Origin: Candidatus Omnitrophota bacterium
GTDB taxonomy: Bacteria; Omnitrophota; Gorgyraeia; Duberdicusellales; 4484-171
Assembly: GCA_021735655.1 (NCBI GenBank)
Contig: JAIPGM010000002.1
Span: 160,001-224,000, forward strand
Length of the DNA: 64,000 nt
Direction of reading: 5' to 3'
Part shown: piece after piece, positions 49,575 through 61,238 of the stretch
Layout of the letters: each line of letters opens with the position of its first letter
Numbering within the stretch: the stretch's first letter is position 1
Notes under the pieces: generated by a model
Databases searched by the model: none
What the model was told of the DNA's origin: nothing
Seen by the model: only the letters and a program-made list of their open reading frames with translations
Position numbers and translations under genes: made by a program

Positions 49575-50378
49575 ATGATTATTAGCGCAGTGGTAACTTT
49601 AGGTTTGGTTGGTTTTCTTTTTGCGTTACTTTTAGCTTTTTTGAGTAAAAAGTTACAGGTTGAAGAAGACCCAAAAGTTAAAACGGTTCTTGAGATCGTT
49701 CCTGGCTTGAACTGCGGAGCTTGTGGCTTTTCCGGTTGTCGCCCATTTGCTGAAGCAGTAGCTAGAGAATCTAAAATTTTTAATGGTTGTCTTCCTGGTG
49801 GTCAGGAAATTAACGATAAGATATCACAAATTCTCGGCATTACCGGTTGTTCGGGATTAAAAAGTCAGGTTGTTATCTGTTGTTGTGGTGCTGATGAGAC
49901 TGCGAAAAAAATATCAACCAAATATATTGGGCCGCAAACCTGCCAAGCAGCCCAGATTACTGGTGGGGCCTTAGATTGCCGATATGGATGTTTTGGTTTT
50001 GGTGATTGTTTAGGAATTTGTCCGGTCGGCGCCTTAACTTTGGATAAAAAGAAAATTAAGGTTGATATTGCTAAATGCATTGGTTGTGGCCAATGTGTTG
50101 AGATTTGTCCGCGCAATCTATTTAAAATAACTCCCTTGCCTGAAATTACTGGTTTTTATTCGGTTGCTTGCAGCAATAAGGAGAAAGCAATGAATGTAAA
50201 GAAGGTTTGCGCTCAAGGGTGTATTGCTTGCACAATTTGCACTCGAGTGCCTGAATCACCTTACTACATGAAAGATAATCTTTCTTATATTGATTATTCC
50301 AAATCAAACAACACTGAACCGCTTCAGGCAGGAATGGACAAATGCCCAACTAAATGTATAGTAAAACTTGATGGATAA
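49575..50378 (+). CDS. rnfB: Rnf complex subunit B (polyferredoxin)
   Basis: 267 aa. N-terminal TM, then NCGACGFSGC and several CxxCxxCxxxCP ferredoxin motifs. Confidence 0.8.
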   Translation: MIISAVVTLGLVGFLFALLLAFLSKKLQVEEDPKVKTVLEIVPGLNCGACGFSGCRPFAEAVARESKIFNGCLPGGQEINDKISQILGITGCSGLKSQVVICCCGADETAKKISTKYIGPQTCQAAQITGGALDCRYGCFGFGDCLGICPVGALTLDKKKIKVDIAKCIGCGQCVEICPRNLFKITPLPEITGFYSVACSNKEKAMNVKKVCAQGCIACTICTRVPESPYYMKDNLSYIDYSKSNNTEPLQAGMDKCPTKCIVKLDG

Positions 50379-50763
50379 AGAAGTCGTCAGGGTTGAAAAA
50401 GTTATTGGGGATAAAGTAAGAGTTCAATTTGAAAGAAAAGTTAGTTGCTCTTGTTGTCGTTTAGAATCCGTTTGCGCTCAGAGAAAGGGAAATTTTGATA
50501 TTGAGCGAAGAGGTTTTTCTTTAAAGGCGGGCGATAAAGTAGAGGTTGCTATTGATGGAAATAAAGGGCTACTTGCTGTGGTTTTAACTTTTTTCTTTCC
50601 GGCAGCCGTATTTATGGCTAGCGTAATCATTTTTCAAGACAAAGGCGAGCTGATAAGTTTTTTTATTGCTTTGGTGATTGTCTGCTTATATTATTTAATC
50701 CTTAAACTGATAGTCAAAAGATTTAAAAACAAATTTGAGTTAAAAATTTTAAAAAAGCTATGA
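50368..50763 (+). CDS. rseC: RseC/MucC-family (SoxR-reducing system) membrane protein
   Basis: 131 aa. N-terminal CSCCRLESVC cysteine cluster plus two C-terminal TM helices. Sits at the 3' end of the rnf operon. Confidence 0.6.
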   Translation: MMDKEVVRVEKVIGDKVRVQFERKVSCSCCRLESVCAQRKGNFDIERRGFSLKAGDKVEVAIDGNKGLLAVVLTFFFPAAVFMASVIIFQDKGELISFFIALVIVCLYYLILKLIVKRFKNKFELKILKKL

Positions 50764-51359
50764 ATATAGCAATATTAGCCTCTGGTAATGGCAGTAATTT
50801 TGAAGCAATTGCTAAAGCGATAAGGCGCGGCCAGATTAGGGCAGAAGTGAAACTTTTAATTACTGATAAGCCACAAGCCTTTGCTCGATTCAGAGCGAAG
50901 AAGTTAAAAATAAAAGATATTTTTATTAATCCTGATAATTATCCATCGAGACTTCTGTTTGATAAAAAACTAGTAGAGGTTTTAAAGATTGATAAAATTG
51001 ATTTAGTAGTTTTGGCCGGATATATGAGAATTCTCTCACCGTACTTTGTAAAAAAATATAAAAATAAAATTTTAAATATTCATCCTTCTCTACTTCCGCG
51101 TTTTAAGGGTGTTAACGCTATCGCTCGAGCTTTTAACCATGGATCTAAATTAACTGGGGTTACTGTACATTTTGTGGATAGTAAAGTTGATCATGGACCA
51201 GTAATTCTACAAAGTTCAATTTTAATAAAAAAAAGCATGAAGCTAAAAAGCTTAGAGAAAGAAATTCATAAACTGGAACATAAGTTATACCCCTTAGCGA
51301 TTAAGTTGTTTGCTGAAAAAAAGTTAAAAGTAAGGGGGAGGAAAGTTGCGATTAACTAA
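50760..51359 (+). CDS. purN: Phosphoribosylglycinamide formyltransferase
   Basis: 199 aa. ILASGNGSN, the folate-binding NIHPSLLP motif, HxxD catalytic pattern. Confidence 0.82.
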   Translation: MNIAILASGNGSNFEAIAKAIRRGQIRAEVKLLITDKPQAFARFRAKKLKIKDIFINPDNYPSRLLFDKKLVEVLKIDKIDLVVLAGYMRILSPYFVKKYKNKILNIHPSLLPRFKGVNAIARAFNHGSKLTGVTVHFVDSKVDHGPVILQSSILIKKSMKLKSLEKEIHKLEHKLYPLAIKLFAEKKLKVRGRKVAIN

Positions 51360-51780
51360 GCTTGTTATCTTGGTTTTTGGTTTATTCTTGTTGTTAGGGG
51401 CTGGAGAGTCAGGCCAAATAGTTAAGGCCACGGTCAATAAGAATAAGGTCTCAACAGGAGAATTGTTAATTTATACTGTAACTATTGAGGGTATTTTTAA
51501 AGATCCTCAAGTAACCCCACCAGAATTTAAGGACTTTAAAGTTAGTTCGCAAAGCAATTCGCAAAACTACTATTTTTCTGGATCCGGAACTAAAATAAAC
51601 ATAACGTTAATTTATACATTACTTGCTCTCAAGGCTGGTAATTTTAGTCTTGGCCCAACAGTCATTAAAGATGAGGGGGAAGAGTACAAAAGTAACGTTG
51701 TTGATATTGCTGTAGAGGGTAAGCCTTTTAAGGAAAAAAAGAAAATCCTACCGTATATTGATGAAGGCCTAGAAATTTAA
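51346..51780 (+). CDS. Small secreted hypothetical protein
   Basis: 144 aa. N-terminal signal-like TM (LVILVFGLFLLLGAG) and a beta-rich body. No confident family. Confidence 0.4.
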   Translation: MRLTKLVILVFGLFLLLGAGESGQIVKATVNKNKVSTGELLIYTVTIEGIFKDPQVTPPEFKDFKVSSQSNSQNYYFSGSGTKINITLIYTLLALKAGNFSLGPTVIKDEGEEYKSNVVDIAVEGKPFKEKKKILPYIDEGLEI

Positions 51781-53828
51781 GGAATTCTACGTATATTTTC
51801 CTCGGCCTTTCGGGCATTAAGATAATCCCCATACTCATAAAATAAGTCATGAGCTTTTAGGAAATTTTCTTTAGCTTTTTGGTTTTCTCCTAAAGCGGAG
51901 TAGGTTCTGCCCATGCCGAAGTATACCTGCGGAGAATCAGGTTTTATTATTAAAGCTTTACGGAAGTGCTGAATTGCTTTTTTGTATTGAACTAAGTTGG
52001 TATAAGTTTCCCCTAGGCTATAATGTATTTGAAAGTTGTCAGGGTCAAGGCGCAATGCCTTCTCAAGGTAGTTTAGGGCTTTTTGTTGTTCTGAGGCGTT
52101 TTTATTTTTTAGGCCTAGTTCATTATGGGCCTTAGACAGGCTAACATATATATCGGGAGATTCCGGAATTGAAGCAAGGACTTTTTCATATTTAGTAATT
52201 GCTCTTTCGTATTGACCTAAAGTTAAATAAGTATTCGCTAATCCGAGTTCCGCTGAGATAGAGGTTGGGTCTAATCTTAGGGCCTTTTCGAAATTATCTA
52301 TTGCCTTTTGAGAATCGCCTAAAAGTCTATAGACATCGCCCAAAGATAAATAGGTTAGAAAATAATCATCTTTTAGTTTTTGTGACCTTAGAAGATACTG
52401 TAATGCTTTTTGATATTGGCCAAGCCTTAGGTACACACTTCCAATGCTGCGGTAAATCTCTGGGTCTTTAGAATTTTTGGCTTCGGCATTTTCAATTGCT
52501 CGTTCAAGATATTGCAATGCTTCTTCAGGAATTCCTAAATCAGCGTAAATCTTGCTTAAAGCCTCGATGATGCCCGGGTAGTCAGGCTGTGCGAGAAAGA
52601 CCTGTTTGAATTCTTCAAGAGCTTCCTTGGGCCTATCAAGAATGCGGTAACATTCACCTAAAGGAAAATGAATTGTTGGGTTTCTAGGATCCAGTTTTAG
52701 CGCATAATTAAAAGCAGCCAGGGCTTGTTTGTGGCGACCCAAATTCATGTAGGTTTCACCGAGCAGCACTTGTGCGTAGATATAACCTGGTGAAATTTCA
52801 AGAGTTTTTCTACAGAAGGCTATTACTTTGTCGAAATTTTTGTTTTCACCTTGAGAATACCGATAGGCTTGACTTAGATAAAAGTTTGCTTTATAGAGTT
52901 TAAATAGTGTTTTATTACTGTCAGCTTCGGGTGGGTACAAGAAAACTTTGTTAACTTCACCAGTTGATGATTTGAATAAAACTGTTTTTGTTTTTTTATT
53001 AAAGTTATCGTTTATTGTAGCGCGTTTGATTTGGATAAAAGAAGAGTAGTTTTCGACTATTTCTCTAGTTATTCTTTCAACTTCTTTATCGGGCGTTGGG
53101 ATATCCGGACTATACTTTTTAATTCGGACATTAAAATCGACTATTATCCGAGAGCTTTGGTAGCGAACATCAATATCGTTAACTTCAAAGTTATCGTTTA
53201 AGCTCGGGGCCAAAAAGGTTCTAGAAATTCTTTCTTGAATTAGCATAGGAATAAACTCAGCTAAGCCAACATTATATTTGCGGAGGTAACGACCACGATC
53301 ATCTTCTAGTATGTTTTTATCGATAAAGGGAGTTTGAAAAGAAATAATTCGTTTTTCAAATTCATAGGCGGATATGTTAGTCGCTAAACCATAAGTGGCT
53401 AAGGTTAGTCTTATCTGATCAGGAATAAATATCAGTTCGTATTGGTTCATCCTGATTAAATTTATTCCTTTTAGACGTTGGATATCGGATTTAACAAAAC
53501 AATAAAATATTGGCGGAGCATCCATATTGAGAAGGGCTCGTTGTATTGATTGAGAAATTTTTCTGACAGTTTCAGACAAGTCTTCATCAACTTTTCCTTC
53601 TTCGTTTACTTTAAATTTGCCAGCTTCATCAAAAAATTCAACCGGGGCATAAACCCAAAGAGTCTCTCCAACCAGCCAAGTGCTTACTTCGATTTTATGC
53701 TCTTCCCTACAGATTTTTTTTATTATTTCGGCAATATCTTTACGTGAATAGGTTGGTGGGACAGAACAGGAAATTAGTAGAAGAGCGCAAAAACTAAGCA
53801 GGAGGTTTTTGAGAGGTATTTTTTGCAT
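51777..53828 (-). CDS. TPR-repeat lipoprotein (N-terminal unknown domain plus ~9 TPR units)
   Basis: 683 aa. Signal peptide with lipobox LLISC. The C-terminal half is a series of 34-aa TPR units (..A..Y.LG..Y...G....A...F..AL.L.P..). Its start overlaps the 3' end of the tandem ftsH by 35 nt. Confidence 0.75.
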   Translation of the reverse strand: MQKIPLKNLLLSFCALLLISCSVPPTYSRKDIAEIIKKICREEHKIEVSTWLVGETLWVYAPVEFFDEAGKFKVNEEGKVDEDLSETVRKISQSIQRALLNMDAPPIFYCFVKSDIQRLKGINLIRMNQYELIFIPDQIRLTLATYGLATNISAYEFEKRIISFQTPFIDKNILEDDRGRYLRKYNVGLAEFIPMLIQERISRTFLAPSLNDNFEVNDIDVRYQSSRIIVDFNVRIKKYSPDIPTPDKEVERITREIVENYSSFIQIKRATINDNFNKKTKTVLFKSSTGEVNKVFLYPPEADSNKTLFKLYKANFYLSQAYRYSQGENKNFDKVIAFCRKTLEISPGYIYAQVLLGETYMNLGRHKQALAAFNYALKLDPRNPTIHFPLGECYRILDRPKEALEEFKQVFLAQPDYPGIIEALSKIYADLGIPEEALQYLERAIENAEAKNSKDPEIYRSIGSVYLRLGQYQKALQYLLRSQKLKDDYFLTYLSLGDVYRLLGDSQKAIDNFEKALRLDPTSISAELGLANTYLTLGQYERAITKYEKVLASIPESPDIYVSLSKAHNELGLKNKNASEQQKALNYLEKALRLDPDNFQIHYSLGETYTNLVQYKKAIQHFRKALIIKPDSPQVYFGMGRTYSALGENQKAKENFLKAHDLFYEYGDYLNARKAEENIRRIP

Positions 53829-56800
53829 ACTTTTTAAAAATTAGTTCTAGTTCAGATTGGGTAAGCTCTTCTTTTTTTAACAATTCACTTGTTAAATGTT
53901 CGAATAAATCTTTTTCTTTTTCTAATAAAGCAACGGTTGATTTAAGGCAATCCTGAAGTAATTCTTGAGTTTCCATATCTAACTTTGATTTCATTTCTTC
54001 AGACAGTAGATTGTTTTCGTTTTGTTCAAATAAAAAGTCACCAATGTATCCTGAACGACCCATGCCCCAACGCCAAACCATTGATCTAGCATACCACATC
54101 GAAGTTTTAAAATCCTGAGAAACACCATTGGTAGTGCTGGCAGTAATTTTCTCAGCAGCATATCCACCAAGAAAAATCTTGATAGTGGACAATAGTTCTT
54201 CCTTGGTGCCGGCGGAACGATCTCCTTTGGTAGCATACCAAGCTACACCTAAAGTTTTGTCTCTTGGAATAATAGATAACTTAAAGGGGAAATTTCCTTT
54301 TCCAAAAAAATACTCAGCTAAACAATGTCCGGCTTCATGGTAGGCGGTGGCCTTAAGCTCCTCGGGGGTTAATTTTAATTTCTTTTTTAAGCCTAATTCT
54401 ATTCTTTCTCGAGCTTCATCGAGCTCTTTCATACCCAGAATAGTTTTTTTCATTTTAGCAGTTAGAAGAGTGCCTTCTTTAATTAAATTAGCTATATCAG
54501 CCGGGGAATAACCCGGAGTAATACCGGCAAACATTTCAGGGTCAATCTCATCTTTGTTATACTTAGTTTTAGAAAGATAAAACTGAAATAACTGCTTTCT
54601 TTCGTCAAAGGTTGGTAAAGAAACATGGAGTTTTCGATCAAACCTTCCCGGCCTAAGAACCGCTTTATCCAAGTTACTTTCATCGGTATTGGTAGCGCCA
54701 ATAATAACAATATTATATTCAGCATCCTTTTCCTTTAAACCGTCCATTTCAACTAAAAATTGGTTTAAAGTTTGATTATGTTCTTGAGTACCGCCGAAAC
54801 CTTTGTCCATAGCCCTTTTGGCGCATAAAGCATCAATTTCATCAATAAAAATTATACAGCCACCTTTGGCTAATGCTTGCTCTCTAGCTTCCCTGAACAT
54901 TTGGCGCACTCGGCTTGCGCCCACACCGACAAACATTTCTACGAATTCTGAACCAGCCTTAGCGATAAAAGGGATCCCTGCCTCATTAGCGATAGCAGAG
55001 GCAAGATAAGTTTTTCCGCATCCAGGAGGGCCAAGCATTAACAAACCCTTAATAATTTGTCCACCCATTTGTTTTAGGTTGGCTCGGTCTTTTATTAAGC
55101 TGACAATTTCTTTGGCTTCGTCTTTTGCGCCTTCCATACCAATGATATCATCCCAACCTATAGAATCTTTTTTTGACTTTTTCATTCCTTCCATTATATA
55201 AGTAAGCCTAGTTTTCCCATGTTTTTTGAAGGTTTCTTCTATTTGATCGTAATCTAACTCTTCTTCTTTTAATAAACGGTTAGCAATTTCATCTAAAATT
55301 ACTTTTTCTCGACGTAATATTTCATTGACTTCATCCAAACATTTATTAATGATATCTTCTTTGTCTCTTTCAGAAATTTGCGAAGGGAAGCCATGTTCTT
55401 GAGTTATACCTCCTGGGCCCGAAGTCCCCATGCCCCACTGATCTACCATTTTCATCGCTAGATTGTTTGCTTGTTTAAGATCTTTCCCTACTCCGGAAGA
55501 TACCGAACCAAAGCGAATTTTTTCAGCAGCATAACCACCAAGAAAACTCTTTATTTGACCTAAAAGATATTCTTTATCCGGGATGTGGCGTTCTTCTTTG
55601 TCCCTTGTCCAGGTAACCCCTCCGGCTGAACGTCTAGGAATAATACTAGCCTTAAAAACATCTTGAGTTGGCACTAAAAAGTAAGTAGCCAGTGTGTGTC
55701 CGGCTTCATGGTAGGCGGCAATTTTTTTATCTTGGAGAGATAACACATATTCAGCTTTTATCCCGATATCGATTCTTTCTTTTGCGTCATGGATGTCGGA
55801 CAAATCAACTTGATTTTTTTTCTTACGGGTAGCAATTAGAGAAGATTCACGAACAATGTTTGCTATGTCAGCTGGGCTATTGCCAACTGTAAAACGAGCT
55901 AACTTAGCAAAATCAATTTTTTCCTTATTGTAGGAAATCTTGGTGAAATAGTATTGTAAAAGATCTTCACGTTCTTTTAACCCGGGGAGCCCAACATAAA
56001 CTTTGCGGTCGAATCGTCCGGGACGCATTAGGGCGCTATCAAGTTCACTCTCGGGAACATTTGTCGCCGCGATTATTACGATATTGTCTTTGGCAGTATC
56101 TAACCCGTCCAATTCAGTTAAAAGCTGATTAACGGTAGCATTATAATCTTGACCGGCACGGCCGCCTCCGGAACTTTCTATTCTCGGTCGGGCGAAAGTA
56201 TCAATTTCATCGATAAAAATTATACAACCACCATCTATTTCAGCGGAGATTCTGGCTTCCTTAAATAGGCTTTTTACTCGATTGGCGCCAACCCCGACAA
56301 ACATACCTTGGAATTCACTACCGGCAACGTGAAGAAAGGGGAGTTTCGTTTCAGTAGCGATAGCTTTAGCCAGATAAGTCTTTCCGCATCCAGGAGGGCC
56401 AATCATTAAAACACCTTTAATAATTTTTCCGCCAACCCGGTCTAAATTAGTATGGTCATTTATGAGCTGAATTACTTCCCAGACTTCCTTCTTTATGTTT
56501 TCCATCCCAATAACGTCAGACCATCTGACATTCACTGATTGCGGTTTTACTTTTTTTGATTTTAATTTATCAAGACCTCCCCCCCAAAGAAAGTATACAA
56601 ATATACTTGTCGTTATTGCACCGGATACAGTACCGACAATTAGCATAAAAAAGATTTGCAGAGGAATACCGGCAAGCATTGATTTACGAAAAAAAGAATC
56701 TAACTGGAAGAAGGTTCGAAGGCCAACAGTGGTTAAAGCAATTATGCTTAGAATTAGGAGAATAGCTACACTTATTATCGTAACTTTTATCCAGTGTAGT

Positions 56801-56871
56801 TTTATATACTTTGTTAATCGTTGATTTGAGCTATTTGCCATGGATTCGCCTCCCGAGATTAAGAATACCAT
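53794..56871 (-). CDS. ftsH: Tandem-duplicated FtsH-like AAA+ zinc metalloprotease (TM-AAA-M41-AAA-M41 in one polypeptide)
   Basis: 1025 aa with two N-terminal TM helices. Module 1 has Walker A GPPGCGKT, Walker B IIFIDEID, pore loop MFVGVG, SRH RPGRFDR and HEAGH. Module 2 has the same complete motif set ([34 protein letters not shown]). Confidence 0.85.
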
Positions 56872-57012: not shown

Positions 57013-58026
57013 ATGGAATTTCAAAGTCGACAGCCCGATGAAATCTTTCAAAATTTAAAACAAAAATTTAGTGGCCAGAGGCCGAAAGGTTTTTGGTTTC
57101 CTTTACTAATTGGTATTGCTATCTTGTCTATATTTTTAAACGGGGCCGGACTTTCTCCCAATCCTTTTTATACTATTCAGCCAGACGAAGTTGGTGTTGT
57201 TTTACGTTTTGGAAAATTCATCAAGGCCACTAATCCTGGTCTTCATTTTAAGTATCCTTTAATTGAAAGAGTTATCCCAGTTAAGGTTGAGAAAGTTTAC
57301 ACTGAAGAGTTTGGCTTTAGAACTCAATCCCCAGGGGTAAGAACTGTCTATAGCCCGAAGTCGTTTGATGATGAGTCGTTAATGCTTACCGGAGATTTAA
57401 ATGTATTAGATTTAGAATGGATTGTTCAATATAAAATAAGTGACCCTTTCGGTGCTTTGTTTAATATACGAAAATTGGTTAAGGCTATACGTGATGTTTC
57501 TGAGTCAGTAGTTCGAAGATTAGTCGGCGATCATTCTTTTAACGAAGTTCTTACTACCGAACGAATAGAGATAAATAATCAAATTCAAGATGAGATGCAA
57601 GAAATTCTTGATTCTTACAACTGTGGAATTCAAATCGTTAAGGTAAAATTACAAGATGTTAACCCGCCTGACCCGGTTAAACCAGCCTTTAATGAAGTAA
57701 ACCAGGCAAAGCAGGAGCGAGAGAAGTTGAAGAACCAGGCTTGGGAAGTTTATAACCAAAAAATACCACAAGCCAAGGGCGAAGCTCTTAAGTTATTTCA
57801 AGAAGCTGAGGGTTACGCTACCGAGAAGGTTAATTGGGCAAAGGGTGATGCGGAGCGTTTCTTGCTGCTTTATAAAGAATACACCAAAGCTAAAGATGTC
57901 ACCTTGAAACGACTGTACTTAGAAAACATGAGTCAAATTCTTAAAAAAGCTGGTAAAAAATACATTCTTGATCCTAAAGAAAAGGGGATTCTTCCCTTAC
58001 TAAAGCTAGAGAGTCAAAATGAATAA
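57013..58026 (+). CDS. hflK: FtsH protease modulator HflK (SPFH/band-7)
   Basis: 337 aa. N-terminal TM, SPFH domain (VVLRFGKF..), C-terminal coiled coil. Confidence 0.8.
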   Translation: MEFQSRQPDEIFQNLKQKFSGQRPKGFWFPLLIGIAILSIFLNGAGLSPNPFYTIQPDEVGVVLRFGKFIKATNPGLHFKYPLIERVIPVKVEKVYTEEFGFRTQSPGVRTVYSPKSFDDESLMLTGDLNVLDLEWIVQYKISDPFGALFNIRKLVKAIRDVSESVVRRLVGDHSFNEVLTTERIEINNQIQDEMQEILDSYNCGIQIVKVKLQDVNPPDPVKPAFNEVNQAKQEREKLKNQAWEVYNQKIPQAKGEALKLFQEAEGYATEKVNWAKGDAERFLLLYKEYTKAKDVTLKRLYLENMSQILKKAGKKYILDPKEKGILPLLKLESQNE

Positions 58027-58966
58027 GAAGTTTGGTTTAATTCCTTTAATAATTATTTTTGTAGTTATTTTGCTAGGCAATCCTTTTTATGTCATAACTG
58101 AAGGCCAACAGGCAGTGATTACTTTATTAGGTAAACCAAAGCGTATAGTTATTGAGTCAGGATTAAAGTTAAAGGTTCCTTTTCTTGAGAAAGTAAATAA
58201 ATTTGAAAAGCGAATATTAGAGTGGGATGGTTACCCTAACGAGATACCAACTAAAGATAAACGTTACATTTGGATTGATACTACTGCTCGTTGGAGAATA
58301 GTCGATGCTTTGAAATTTTTTAAAGCCGCTTCCTCAGAACGTGGTGCCCAAACCATACTCGACGGGATTATTGATGCAGCGGTCAGAGATGCGATTACCG
58401 CTCAGAAATCAACTGAAGTTGTGCGGTCTTCGAACAGGTTACTGGAAAGTCTAAAAACTGCTAAAACCGAAGAAGGCTTTGTTGATGAGAGCGCCTTGGA
58501 TGCAACTGAGATTGGTCGAGACAAAATTCGTGAAGAGATAGTTGAAAAAGCAAGGGGAGACTTAGGCTCTCGCTATGGAATCGAGCTAATTGATGTCAGA
58601 ATTAAACGAATTAATTATATCGAAAAAGTTCAACAGGATGTCTACGAGCGAATGATTGCTGAACGTAAACGAGCCGCTGAGCAATATCGTTCTGAAGGAA
58701 GAGGGATTAGGGCTGATGTTGAAGGGCGTACCGAAAAAGAGCTTAAGTCGATTCTTTCAGAAGCTTATAAGAAGGCTCAAACCATTAAAGGTGAAGCTGA
58801 TGCCGAGTCTACAAAGATTTATGCTGATGCTTATGGGAAAGATCCTGAATTCTTCGCATTTTTAAAAACTCTCGAAACTTACAATGATACCGTTGATAAA
58901 AATACGATAATTATCCTAACTACTGAAGGGGAGTATTATAAGTATTTGAATGCAATCAATCCTTAA
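58019..58966 (+). CDS. hflC: FtsH protease modulator HflC (SPFH/band-7)
   Basis: 315 aa. N-terminal TM, SPFH domain (QQAVITLLGKP..). Overlaps the hflK stop. Confidence 0.8.
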   Translation: MNKKFGLIPLIIIFVVILLGNPFYVITEGQQAVITLLGKPKRIVIESGLKLKVPFLEKVNKFEKRILEWDGYPNEIPTKDKRYIWIDTTARWRIVDALKFFKAASSERGAQTILDGIIDAAVRDAITAQKSTEVVRSSNRLLESLKTAKTEEGFVDESALDATEIGRDKIREEIVEKARGDLGSRYGIELIDVRIKRINYIEKVQQDVYERMIAERKRAAEQYRSEGRGIRADVEGRTEKELKSILSEAYKKAQTIKGEADAESTKIYADAYGKDPEFFAFLKTLETYNDTVDKNTIIILTTEGEYYKYLNAINP

Positions 58967-58993: not shown

Positions 58994-59845
58994 ATGAATA
59001 CTGCAACTTTATTAATATCTTGTCCCGATCAAAAAGGCATAACCGCAAGTATTACCGATTTTATTTATCGGCATCAAGGAAATATTGAACATGCCGATCA
59101 ACATATCGATTTTCAATCTAATATCTTTTTCATGCGGATCGAATGGTCTTTGGATAATTTTGAAATTCCCAAAGATAAAATTAAAGAATCATTCAATTCT
59201 CTAGCTGATAAGTTCAGAATGAACTTTTCGCTTCATTTTAGTTCTAAAATTCCCCGAATGGCAATTTTTGTCTCAAAGCAAACCCATTGTCTCTACGATT
59301 TACTGCTTAAATACAAACAGGGGCACTTGCGTTGCGAGATACCTTTAATAATTAGTAATCATTCCGAAGTTAAAGAAATTGCTAAAAGTTTTAACCTGAA
59401 GTTTTTCTATTCAGTTAAGAATCAAAAAAATAAAGTAGCTTCTGAAAATAAAGAGCTGACCTTACTAGCTAAGGAAAAAGTAGATTTTCTTGTCTTAGCC
59501 AGATACGGACAAATTTTTACCAAAGAGTTTGTTGAAAATTTCCCTAGTCGAATTATAAATATCCATCATTCTTTTTTACCGGCCTTTATTGGCTCAGATC
59601 CTTATCGTCAGGCTTATTCTCGGGGAGTTAAAATTATTGGAGCAACTAGTCATTACGTAACTGAAGCTCTTGATGCTGGGCCGATTATTGATCAGGACAT
59701 TACTAGGGTTAGTCACCGCGACTGCTTAGAAGATTTGAAGCGGGAAGGCCAAGATTTAGAGCGCACAGTCCTAAGTCGGGCAGTTCGTTGGCACCTTGAG
59801 CACAAAATCTTAGTTTATGCTAATAAAACTGTTGTTTTTGATTAA
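58994..59845 (+). CDS. purU: Formyltetrahydrofolate deformylase
   Basis: 283 aa. N-terminal ACT domain and C-terminal formyl-transferase domain (NIHHSFLPAF, HxxD). Confidence 0.8.
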   Translation: MNTATLLISCPDQKGITASITDFIYRHQGNIEHADQHIDFQSNIFFMRIEWSLDNFEIPKDKIKESFNSLADKFRMNFSLHFSSKIPRMAIFVSKQTHCLYDLLLKYKQGHLRCEIPLIISNHSEVKEIAKSFNLKFFYSVKNQKNKVASENKELTLLAKEKVDFLVLARYGQIFTKEFVENFPSRIINIHHSFLPAFIGSDPYRQAYSRGVKIIGATSHYVTEALDAGPIIDQDITRVSHRDCLEDLKREGQDLERTVLSRAVRWHLEHKILVYANKTVVFD

Positions 59846-59886
59846 ATATTGCAATATTTTTAATATATGTTAAAATAACCATCTTT

Positions 59887-59926
59887 GTAAGCGCAGAAAA
59901 TAACCGCGCTTACACCTCTTTTTTAA
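59887..59926 (+). terminator. Rho-independent terminator after purU
   Basis: GTAAGCGC-loop-GCGCTTAC hairpin followed by CCTCTTTTTT. Confidence 0.75.
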
Positions 59927-59954
59927 ATTTTACAATATTCAAGGGAGGAGCGTA

Positions 59955-61238
59955 ATGAAAAAAATACTTAAGTTTACTGCTATCATTGTCTTATTGTTGT
60001 TTGTTTTTGGCTGTTCTGGTCAAAAACCTAAAGACGGCACAGTGGTCGTTTGGCATTGGATGACCGACAGAAAAGATGCTTTTTTAGAGTTAGCTAAAAA
60101 GTATCAGGCTGAAACCGGCGTAACTGTTGAATTTAAACTGCTATTTCCTCCGGAAACCTATTCAATGAAGGTTACTGCCGGAGCCCGAGCAAAAACCCTA
60201 CCTGATATTTTTGGTATTTTAGGTGAGAAAAAAACAGTTGGTTCGTTCATTCGGGCAAAGCATATATCTGATCTTACTTCCGATATGACTGCTGATTCAA
60301 AAACATGGCAGAAACGTTTTTACCCTCAAACTTTAGATGTAGTTGTATTTAAGAAAAACAATTATTCTGGTGTCAAACCGGGAATATACGGTGTCCCAAT
60401 AGATACTACGGTTATGCAGTTTGTTTATAACAAATCACTTCTTAATGATTTAGGCTTGCCAGGACCTCCGGAAACTTTTGAGGATTTTATCAACTATGCA
60501 AATCGAGTAAAAGAAAAAGAAAAAACTTTCGGTTTTGTTTGTGGCTGGGGTGAAGGCTGGTTGCTTAATGCTTTAGCGACTGAATGGGCAATAAACCTTA
60601 TGGGGGAAAAGAAGTTTTTAAGTACCCTTGAAGGGAGTGTTTCTTATACTGACCCTGACTGGATAAAGGTTTTTTCATTATTCGAGACCTTGCGTAACTC
60701 CGGCATTCTTTCACCGAATATCGCGACTATGACCAACAAAGAGTCAGAGAATGCTTTTTCTAAAGGCAAAGCTTTGTTTTCTTTTAATGGTAGTTGGTCA
60801 ATGAATGTTTATGCACAACTTAATCCCGAACTTAATTATGGCTTTTTTTCACTTCCCAAGGTTTCGAAAAATTATCCGGTAAAGGTTTGGGGAGGTTCAG
60901 GAACCTCGTTTATGGTTAATGACCGTTCTCCTAATAAGGACAAAGCCATTGAATTTCTTAAATGGTTAACCAAAAAGGAACAACAGATCTTTTTGATTAA
61001 GGAAACTAACAATCTGCCGGCGATTAAAGGCTGTGAAGATCAGATGTCAGAAAGGCTTAAAAAACTTACTTTAAATTTAAATAACCTTACTCATCCTGAT
61101 GTTTGGCCGGGCAATGAGGATTCAAGGGTAATTGAATCTTTGAATCGTGGCCTGCAGCAAATAGTCATGGGCCTCAAAAAACCTCAAGAGGTTGCTAAAG
61201 AGGTGCAGGAAAAGAAAGACAAAATTGTAAAAAGATGA
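59955..61238 (+). CDS. ABC transporter substrate-binding lipoprotein (family 1, carbohydrate-type)
   Basis: 427 aa. Lipoprotein signal LLLFVFGCSG, MalE/UgpB-like fold pattern. RBS AGGGAGGAG. Confidence 0.7.
   Translation: MKKILKFTAIIVLLLFVFGCSGQKPKDGTVVVWHWMTDRKDAFLELAKKYQAETGVTVEFKLLFPPETYSMKVTAGARAKTLPDIFGILGEKKTVGSFIRAKHISDLTSDMTADSKTWQKRFYPQTLDVVVFKKNNYSGVKPGIYGVPIDTTVMQFVYNKSLLNDLGLPGPPETFEDFINYANRVKEKEKTFGFVCGWGEGWLLNALATEWAINLMGEKKFLSTLEGSVSYTDPDWIKVFSLFETLRNSGILSPNIATMTNKESENAFSKGKALFSFNGSWSMNVYAQLNPELNYGFFSLPKVSKNYPVKVWGGSGTSFMVNDRSPNKDKAIEFLKWLTKKEQQIFLIKETNNLPAIKGCEDQMSERLKKLTLNLNNLTHPDVWPGNEDSRVIESLNRGLQQIVMGLKKPQEVAKEVQEKKDKIVKR

Follow-up and report, generated by a model that had tools for sequence, protein, structure and literature searches.

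A single gene in a stretch of 64,000 nucleotides from a Candidatus Omnitrophota contig (JAIPGM010000002.1; the whole stretch is hereafter called the window) encodes a membrane-anchored FtsH-like protease in which one transmembrane hairpin is followed by two complete AAA+–M41 units. The protein is real and conserved, being represented by 58 full-length sequences, including that of the window, which can be aligned over their whole length with 46–100% identity. Neither targeted literature searches nor a review of FtsH evolution from 2022 mentioned a fused or tandem FtsH, and none was found among Protein Data Bank chains. This agrees with an original prediction, made from the DNA alone, which was aware of no characterized example. 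An uncultured phylum thus conserves a tandem FtsH that the searched literature does not describe, as part of a wider diversification of FtsH that is likewise undescribed. Our overall picture, held with a little less than even confidence, is that of a single-chain "heterodimer" subunit that would assemble into an alternating ring, with a pseudo-protease in a sister clade, a phylum-specific series of architectures at one locus, and a dedicated lipoprotein replacing the periplasmic domain.

Two complete FtsH-like units in one protein

The open reading frame (ORF) at 53794..56871 on the minus strand is single, uninterrupted and 1025 amino acids (aa) long. A Shine–Dalgarno-like GGGAGG (56849..56854, minus strand) could be read off the sequence 7 nt 5′ of the second ATG (56841). 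The true product is therefore probably the 1015-aa protein that starts at this ATG, and ORF codons 1–10 (from 56871) are probably untranslated. The NCBI protein MCF7907653.1, from a Candidatus Omnitrophota metagenome-assembled genome, is annotated as 1015 aa and corresponds to residues 11–1025 of the ORF. Accordingly, the length of 1025 aa given in the original prediction holds for the ORF and probably not for the product. Residue numbers below follow the 1025-aa ORF unless otherwise indicated. The gene is composed of the following parts:

53794..56841, minus strand: tandem FtsH-like coding sequence (ORF scan, Shine–Dalgarno-like sequence, MCF7907653.1; longest ORF from 56871)
56584..56793, minus strand: N-terminal transmembrane helical hairpin, residues ~27–96 (hydropathy, AlphaFold2; FtsH_ext unmatched)
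55756..56547, minus strand: module 1 AAA+ ATPase, residues 109–372 (Walker A, Walker B, MFVG, sensor-1 TN and RPGRFDR intact)
55204..55755, minus strand: module 1 M41 protease, residues 373–556 (HEAGH at 55696–55710; Asp ligand present)
55156..55227, minus strand: inter-module tether, from an invariant Phe at the end of the last M41-1 helix to an invariant Trp at the start of AAA2
54385..55179, minus strand: module 2 AAA+ ATPase, residues 565–829 (every motif intact)
53812..54384, minus strand: module 2 M41 protease, residues 830–1020 (HEAGH at 54325–54339)

The Pfam models AAA (PF00004), AAA_lid_3 and Peptidase_M41 each matched the ORF in two stretches, as had been expected for a duplicated protease, and so did the FtsH_fam model TIGR01241, with 858 bits summed over both. 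The domain order is therefore transmembrane hairpin–AAA–M41–AAA–M41. In addition, a motif scan detected every motif named in the original prediction twice: Walker A (GPPGCGKT) at 158 and 614, Walker B (IIFIDEID) at 217 and 673, the pore loop (MFVG) at 190 and 646, the arginine fingers (RPGRFDR) at 283 and 740, HEAGH at 388 and 845, and GGYAAE, with its Glu in both modules, at 445 and 902. The Asp equivalent to that of "SNDI" in E. coli, the third zinc ligand in solved structures, was also present in both modules (GKDL in module 1 and SQDF in module 2); the zinc ligands of YME1 are His, His and Asp (YME1 paper). Also retained in both was the hinge glycine, located in the linker that joins ATPase and protease. 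The two modules shared 48% protein identity over 458 residues.

The hydropathy profile revealed two hydrophobic segments (~27–50 and ~64–96) separated by a loop of about 13 residues or fewer, and none ahead of module 2. In the AlphaFold2 model, these segments formed a helical hairpin, with helices 5–46 and 49–86 (1015-aa numbering) joined by a 2-residue turn. The periplasmic FtsH_ext domain (PF06480) had no Pfam match in the protein, and relatives likewise lacked a periplasmic domain, with an N-terminal region of ~95–100 aa in all of them. The near absence of a periplasmic domain noted in the original prediction was thus borne out. No other FtsH-like gene was found within the window.

Conservation and origin of the fusion

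The layout AAA–M41–AAA–M41 was present in 59 of the best 120 database homologs (60 with the window ORF added), which were collected from NCBI, JGI, ENA and Logan. The 57 full-length homologs other than the window protein were 46–70% identical to it, nearly all of them were labeled Omnitrophota, and all had the same layout. An identical 1025-aa ORF occurred on an independent Logan assembly contig, and a 64%-identical ortholog was read on 11 contigs from several samples. Although the sequence stems from a metagenome-assembled genome, an erroneous join of two adjacent ftsH genes in assembly or sequencing, or a recent tandem duplication collapsed or expanded in assembly, is so improbable that we regard it as ruled out: the reading frame is continuous through the junction, DNA similarity between the modules is low (71% identity over only 248 nt, plus two short patches), the independent contig carries the same ORF, proteins from four sources and down to 46% identity are fused alike, and module 2 has no transmembrane segment of its own while the junction length is conserved. 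The view of the original prediction, that a continuous frame and diverged modules point to an old fusion, therefore holds.

To place the modules relative to each other, the 58 proteins were split and analyzed together with single-module relatives in a neighbor-joining tree with bootstrap, with E. coli FtsH as outgroup. All 58 module-1 sequences fell into one clade and all 58 module-2 sequences into another (bootstrap 61 and 78), and the two classes never intermixed. As each class forms one clade, the tree indicates a single, ancient duplication event that would have preceded diversification of the family. Branching among module 1, module 2 and single-module sequences had a bootstrap of 13% or less for any grouping.

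The whole group was distant from E. coli FtsH (branch length 0.78). Scores with TIGR01241, an NCBIfam equivalog model with a 600-bit cut-off, were 425 and 439 bits for the two modules, 463 bits for a single-module relative and 892 bits for E. coli FtsH. Since the modules score under the cut-off, they belong to a divergent FtsH-like clade, and this divergence probably explains the NCBI label "AAA family ATPase". In addition, the inter-subunit signaling motif DGF was replaced by DGL in both modules (ELDGL at 56130–56144 in module 1 and EMDGL at 54765–54779 in module 2). In the AAA-domain alignment, DGL was also found in nearly all single-module relatives and in nearly all relatives with three or four AAA domains, and E. 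coli FtsH had DGF. The DGF motif has been called strictly conserved in FtsH/YME1 homologs and proteasomal ATPases (YME1 paper).

We propose that the tandem gene goes back to a single ancient event, in which a "short" FtsH-like gene had its cytoplasmic part duplicated internally. This ancestral type, without a periplasmic domain and with DGL, would survive as the single-module gene found at the same chromosomal position in other Omnitrophota.

Asymmetry between the two modules

ATPase motifs were intact in both modules of all 58 sequences; the pore-loop aromatic residue was missing in five. The protease sites differed more strongly. HExxH was retained in module 2 of all 58 sequences and in module 1 of 23, all of which belong to the subclade of the window protein, so that the zinc site of module 1 is gone in 35/58. 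Of the 24 sequences in the window's subclade, which shared 54% identity or more with the window protein, all except P0014 (HEAGK) kept HExGH. The remaining 34 sequences, 46–50% identical to the window protein, formed a sister subclade in which the first zinc-binding His was replaced by Tyr (YEAGH/YEAGR) at module-1 position 378 (1015-aa numbering; for example, P0033-P0094). Several of its members also lacked the second His.

In the window's subclade, both units appear to retain all residues needed for ATP hydrolysis, substrate gripping and zinc-dependent proteolysis, from which we infer that both modules pull on and cut substrate. In the sister subclade, judged by its sequences, an active protease would be linked covalently to a pseudo-protease similar to FtsHi. 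Within this subclade, identity of M41-1 was 0.70 vs 0.66 for M41-2. M41-1 has thus evolved no faster after loss of its zinc site, and the zinc-less domain has evidently kept a structural role. For the AAA domains, identity between the two clades was 0.645 in module 2 vs 0.558 in module 1.

Other architectures at the same locus and rarity of the tandem layout

The tandem gene is one of several architectures found over 11 Omnitrophota loci. Single-module genes were present at two loci (L003 and L039) and tandem genes at seven (the window, L002, L031, L033, L035, L037 and L038). In addition, genes for three AAA domains followed by one M41 domain (3×AAA–M41; L040) and for four AAA domains followed by one M41 domain (4×AAA–M41; L041) were detected at the corresponding position in other Omnitrophota. 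Coordinates of the FtsH-like gene in three of these loci are as follows:

L039, 6001-7695: single-module gene
L040, 6001-9306: 3×AAA–M41 gene
L041, 6001-10110: 4×AAA–M41 gene

Gene order at the single-module locus L039 was that of the window (a partner lipoprotein gene described below, followed by genes for BatD, a purN-like protein, RseC and an RnfB-like protein). Based on this shared synteny, the different architectures are positional orthologs remodeled in place. Almost all of the extra AAA domains kept Walker motifs and arginine fingers; the second AAA domain of the 4×AAA form had degenerate pore loops. An AlphaFold2 model of the 3×AAA–M41 protein (P0041, from L040) could be superposed on the D1–D2 protomers of p97, Cdc48 and NVL with template modeling scores (TM-scores) of 0.72–0.78 and root-mean-square deviations (rmsd) of 4.5–5.5 Å. 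Stacked towers are therefore likely for these multi-AAA sisters, and the 3×AAA relative is predicted by this model to stack its AAA rings into a multi-storey tower on top of one protease ring. To our knowledge, no such tower has been described for FtsH.

Rarity of the tandem layout was assessed by an exhaustive HMMER search over 1.84 billion cluster representatives, in which layouts were classified among the best 150. A layout of the two-M41 type was found in four of these 150: P0052 (Omnitrophota), P0143 (a fragment), P0145 and P0190, a truncated AAA–M41–AAA. P0145 (1428 aa) contains two full FtsH units, each of which has HEAGH and a separate transmembrane/N-terminal region; judging by its Ala-rich N-terminus, this protein may come from a eukaryote or an organelle, or may be a fused gene model. 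The same 150 included 36 AAA–AAA–M41 clusters and eight AAA–AAA–AAA–M41 clusters (nine with P0077). Canonical FtsH N-termini, with a gap of periplasmic size between transmembrane helices, were present in some multi-AAA forms (P0141, P0144, P0151, P0156 and P0158). A scan of a genome collection with sequence patterns, which were too specific, returned two Omnitrophota loci plus unrelated Bacteroidota and other phyla, but not the genome of the window itself. The best-ranking representatives of canonical FtsH length carried the source names Anaplasmataceae and Bacteroidaceae and thus say nothing about Omnitrophota. Two further layouts were observed: P0028 (1217 aa) was arranged as AAA–M41–M41–AAA–M41, and four proteins of 1400–2100 aa (in the P0139-P0285 set) contained five AAA domains and no M41.

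Assembly of the tandem protein

We consider an alternating trimer of tandem pairs the most likely model, with about even confidence. A ring of this kind had been suggested in the original prediction, which likened it to a hard-wired Yta10/Yta12 hetero-hexamer, and it is a plausible proposal. Three chains would form one FtsH-like double ring in which modules 1 and 2 alternate: a 3+3 ATPase ring would lie above a 3+3 protease ring, and three hairpins would hold the complex in the membrane. Tandem duplication of a homohexamer subunit would give such a trimer of pairs without any new interface. Natural FtsH heterohexamers have a 1:1 stoichiometry, and the ATPase ring of one FtsH crystal form shows threefold symmetry, as a "trimer of dimers" in which open domains alternate with closed ones (PMC9020784). 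In the sister subclade, where module 1 would be a pseudo-protease, the ring would keep three active sites.

Structural evidence came from an AlphaFold2 monomer model built with the 58-sequence alignment. Its domains were confident (mean predicted local distance difference test score, pLDDT, 80.9), and each module superposed on FtsH, AFG3L2 and YME1 protomers with TM-scores of 0.74–0.81. When the tandem model was compared with p97/NVL D1–D2 chains using Foldseek, the TM-score was ~0.3 and the rmsd ~15 Å. These values rule out a p97-like direct stacking of AAA1 on AAA2 in the tandem protein and were counted for the alternating ring. The tether between modules comprised 24 residues in the window protein and 21–27 in all 58 sequences, and was modeled with one short low-confidence helix. 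In the structure of AFG3L2, the end of the M41 core is found at the bottom of the protease ring, from where ~30 residues pass up the exterior and reach the ATPase face nearest the membrane, beside the N-terminal helix. By comparison with this path, an in-plane link is possible but nearly taut; in the alternating ring, the tether would run up the exterior of the complex as the AFG3L2 C-terminal extension does. Strong purifying selection on M41-1 after loss of the zinc site fits a domain that is needed to close a six-membered ring. The single-ring model is favored because the tether varies little in length and because M41-1, once inactivated, was still kept by selection; neither point is decisive.

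Several observations weigh against an alternating ring. The predicted TM-score (pTM) of the monomer model was 0.52; the relative placement of the modules is therefore not fixed by the model, which supports no particular inter-module arrangement. The tether is shorter than the ~30-residue AFG3L2 path, which leaves the in-plane link nearly taut. A trimer would have six transmembrane helices, not 12. Finally, the 3×AAA–M41 and 4×AAA–M41 proteins and the 36 AAA–AAA–M41 clusters are incompatible with a planar arrangement in which the M41 ring is complete; given that the 3×AAA model also stacks like p97, stacking appears to be used in this lineage.

A two-storey hexamer is a less likely, though serious, alternative for the tandem protein. 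Here, six coaxial chains would form, from the membrane, the transmembrane hairpins followed by AAA1, M41-1, AAA2 and M41-2 rings. The upper storey would extract membrane substrates, and the lower would take the polypeptide via the first chamber or accept soluble, laterally entering substrates; in the sister subclade, the upper protease ring would be an inert collar. Such a hexamer would keep the canonical 12 transmembrane helices, and because the M41 core ends at the ring base, a short tether would reach a ring beneath it. The HExxH of the terminal M41, present in all 58 sequences, fits a substrate that ends in the last chamber, and the proteins at the same locus in which one terminal M41 follows three or four AAA domains, together with superposition of the 3×AAA model on p97-type protomers, provide a parallel. 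However, docking of an AAA ring under an M41 ring is without precedent, and substrate access to AAA2 would be obstructed. A spacer M41-1 would be expected to be deleted, as in the common AAA–AAA–M41 proteins, or to be under relaxed selection; instead, it was retained in 58/58 and was as conserved as M41-2. The tether was never shorter than 21 residues, more than would be expected for a direct stack, and the AlphaFold2 result for the 3×AAA protein, which may reflect training bias toward the p97 fold, says nothing direct about the tandem protein. If true, a two-storey tower would be a protease with two chambers in series, equally unprecedented.

An asymmetric or regulatory paralog is improbable. 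According to this explanation, module 2 alone would be the working protease–unfoldase and module 1 a membrane-tethering, substrate-selecting or gating ATPase; the protein would assist a canonical FtsH encoded at another locus and may be part of mixed or higher-order complexes instead of a single defined ring. Both modules do score below the FtsH equivalog cut-off, the zinc site of module 1 is lost in most of the family, the pore-loop aromatic residue is gone in five sequences, and the AAA domain of module 2 is better conserved between clades than that of module 1. On the other hand, catalytic residues of module 1 are complete in the window protein and its subclade (P0014 excepted), its ATPase motifs are intact throughout the family, the genes for the classical FtsH modulators HflK and HflC adjoin the window gene, and the single-module ortholog at the same locus resembles an ordinary, if short, FtsH.

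Genomic neighborhood and a partner lipoprotein

Genes around the tandem gene in the window are:

51777..53828, minus strand: partner lipoprotein (lipobox LLISC; tetratricopeptide repeat (TPR) matches); its start overlaps the stop of the FtsH-like gene by 35 nt
57013..58026, plus strand: hflK (TIGR01933, 288.5 bits, cut-off 159.4), divergent from the tandem gene
58019..58966, plus strand: hflC (TIGR01932, 280.6 bits, cut-off 134.4)
49575-51780, plus strand: RnfB-like Fe–S protein, RseC/MucC, purN-like formyltransferase and BatD-domain protein
58994-61238, plus strand: purU-like ACT-formyltransferase and ABC sugar-binding protein

Flanking gene order was conserved with related Omnitrophota contigs. 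The partner protein has a conserved N-terminal domain of ~270 aa with motifs such as G-D/E-T-L-W-V-Y-x-P, to which C-terminal TPR repeats are fused in the window and L031. No Pfam or NCBIfam family matched the N-terminal domain, and a profile search gave only 13 further "hypothetical" proteins. A homolog of the partner was located directly downstream of the FtsH-like gene in 11/11 distinct Omnitrophota loci, with every architecture; two of the 11 loci had not been used in building the search profile. Its coordinates in the related loci are:

L002, 4162-6210
L003, 7544-8446
L033, 11095-11928
L035, 11057-11959
L037, 9095-9982
L039, 7640-8548
L040, 9311-10285
L041, 10110-11183

The hflK and hflC genes lie immediately upstream of the tandem gene in divergent orientation. 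This adjacency was kept only in close relatives (L031/L032) and was therefore ruled out as a family-wide trait. In E. coli, the periplasmic domain of FtsH is thought to be involved in contacts between FtsH and HflKC; in the window, hflK and hflC adjoin an FtsH-like gene without this domain. A co-transcribed periplasmic lipoprotein, and here also HflK and HflC, would supply regulation from the membrane and periplasmic side, and these partners probably stand in for the regulation provided by the periplasmic domain in canonical FtsH.

In the zinc-deficient subclade, the tandem gene directly followed smpB in all three distinct loci (four contigs) examined, with smpB at 7496-7948 in L035/L036, 5545-5997 in L037 and 5548-5991 in L038. 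SmpB is the partner of tmRNA, and E. coli FtsH degrades SsrA-tagged proteins. A functional link between smpB and the tandem gene is conceivable.

Significance and comparison with known systems

FtsH is usually seen as architecturally invariant in bacteria, and its repeated remodeling in Omnitrophota, into tandem as well as 3×AAA and 4×AAA forms, departs from this view. Division of labor in AAA+ rings is usually probed with engineered linked subunits; a natural fusion that has been fixed over a long evolutionary time offers a comparative dataset. In particular, with both protease sites intact in one clade and one of them dead in the other, the family can be used to ask which positions must stay active. 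In addition, the presence of hflKC and a conserved lipoprotein gene next to a protein without a periplasmic domain raises the question of how FtsH is regulated from outside the cytoplasm.

Compared to canonical FtsH (E. coli, T. maritima, T. thermophilus and A. aeolicus), the tandem protein has the same two N-terminal transmembrane helices and hinge glycine, a classical-clade AAA+ domain with Walker A and B, aromatic pore loop and arginine fingers of the second region of homology, and an M41 domain with HExxH and Asp. Each module superposes on canonical protomers with a TM-score of ~0.8 at ~36–40% sequence identity, and, in the window, hflK and hflC are neighbors. However, canonical FtsH has one AAA and one M41 domain per chain and forms a homohexamer, whereas two units per chain are present here, without a periplasmic domain, with DGL instead of DGF, and with 425–439 bits per unit against 892 for E. 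coli FtsH in TIGR01241. A dedicated lipoprotein gene lies downstream, unlike in the case of E. coli ftsH.

Hetero-hexameric relatives, such as the yeast m-AAA protease Yta10/Yta12, human AFG3L2/SPG7 and the type A/B FtsH of cyanobacteria and chloroplasts, also combine two diverged units at 1:1, a ratio that is fixed by fusion in the tandem protein. Their subunits are separate chains with their own anchors; here, there is one chain with one hairpin, alternation is a model, and the duplication took place independently and is confined to a lineage of Omnitrophota. In the sister subclade (34/58), module 1 resembles FtsHi, which works beside one active FtsH12 in the chloroplast Ycf2–FtsHi import motor, in that the first zinc-binding His was lost while the ATPase and M41 fold were kept. 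Unlike in the case of FtsHi, HEAGH is present in both modules of the window protein, the units are covalently joined, and the system is bacterial and is not an import motor.

Type II AAA+ proteins (p97/Cdc48, NVL, NSF and ClpB) also contain two AAA+ modules per chain. The AAA domains of the tandem protein are kept apart by a full M41 domain, and no D1–D2 superposition was obtained, although the 3×AAA relative does superpose. Finally, engineered single-chain ClpX pseudohexamers are laboratory constructs with designed linkers, in which ring positions are non-equivalent and can be mutated individually. If the in-plane model is right, neighboring subunits would be tethered in the tandem protein as they are in these pseudohexamers, and tandem FtsH would be a natural, anciently fixed equivalent of such linked rings that also includes the protease domains.

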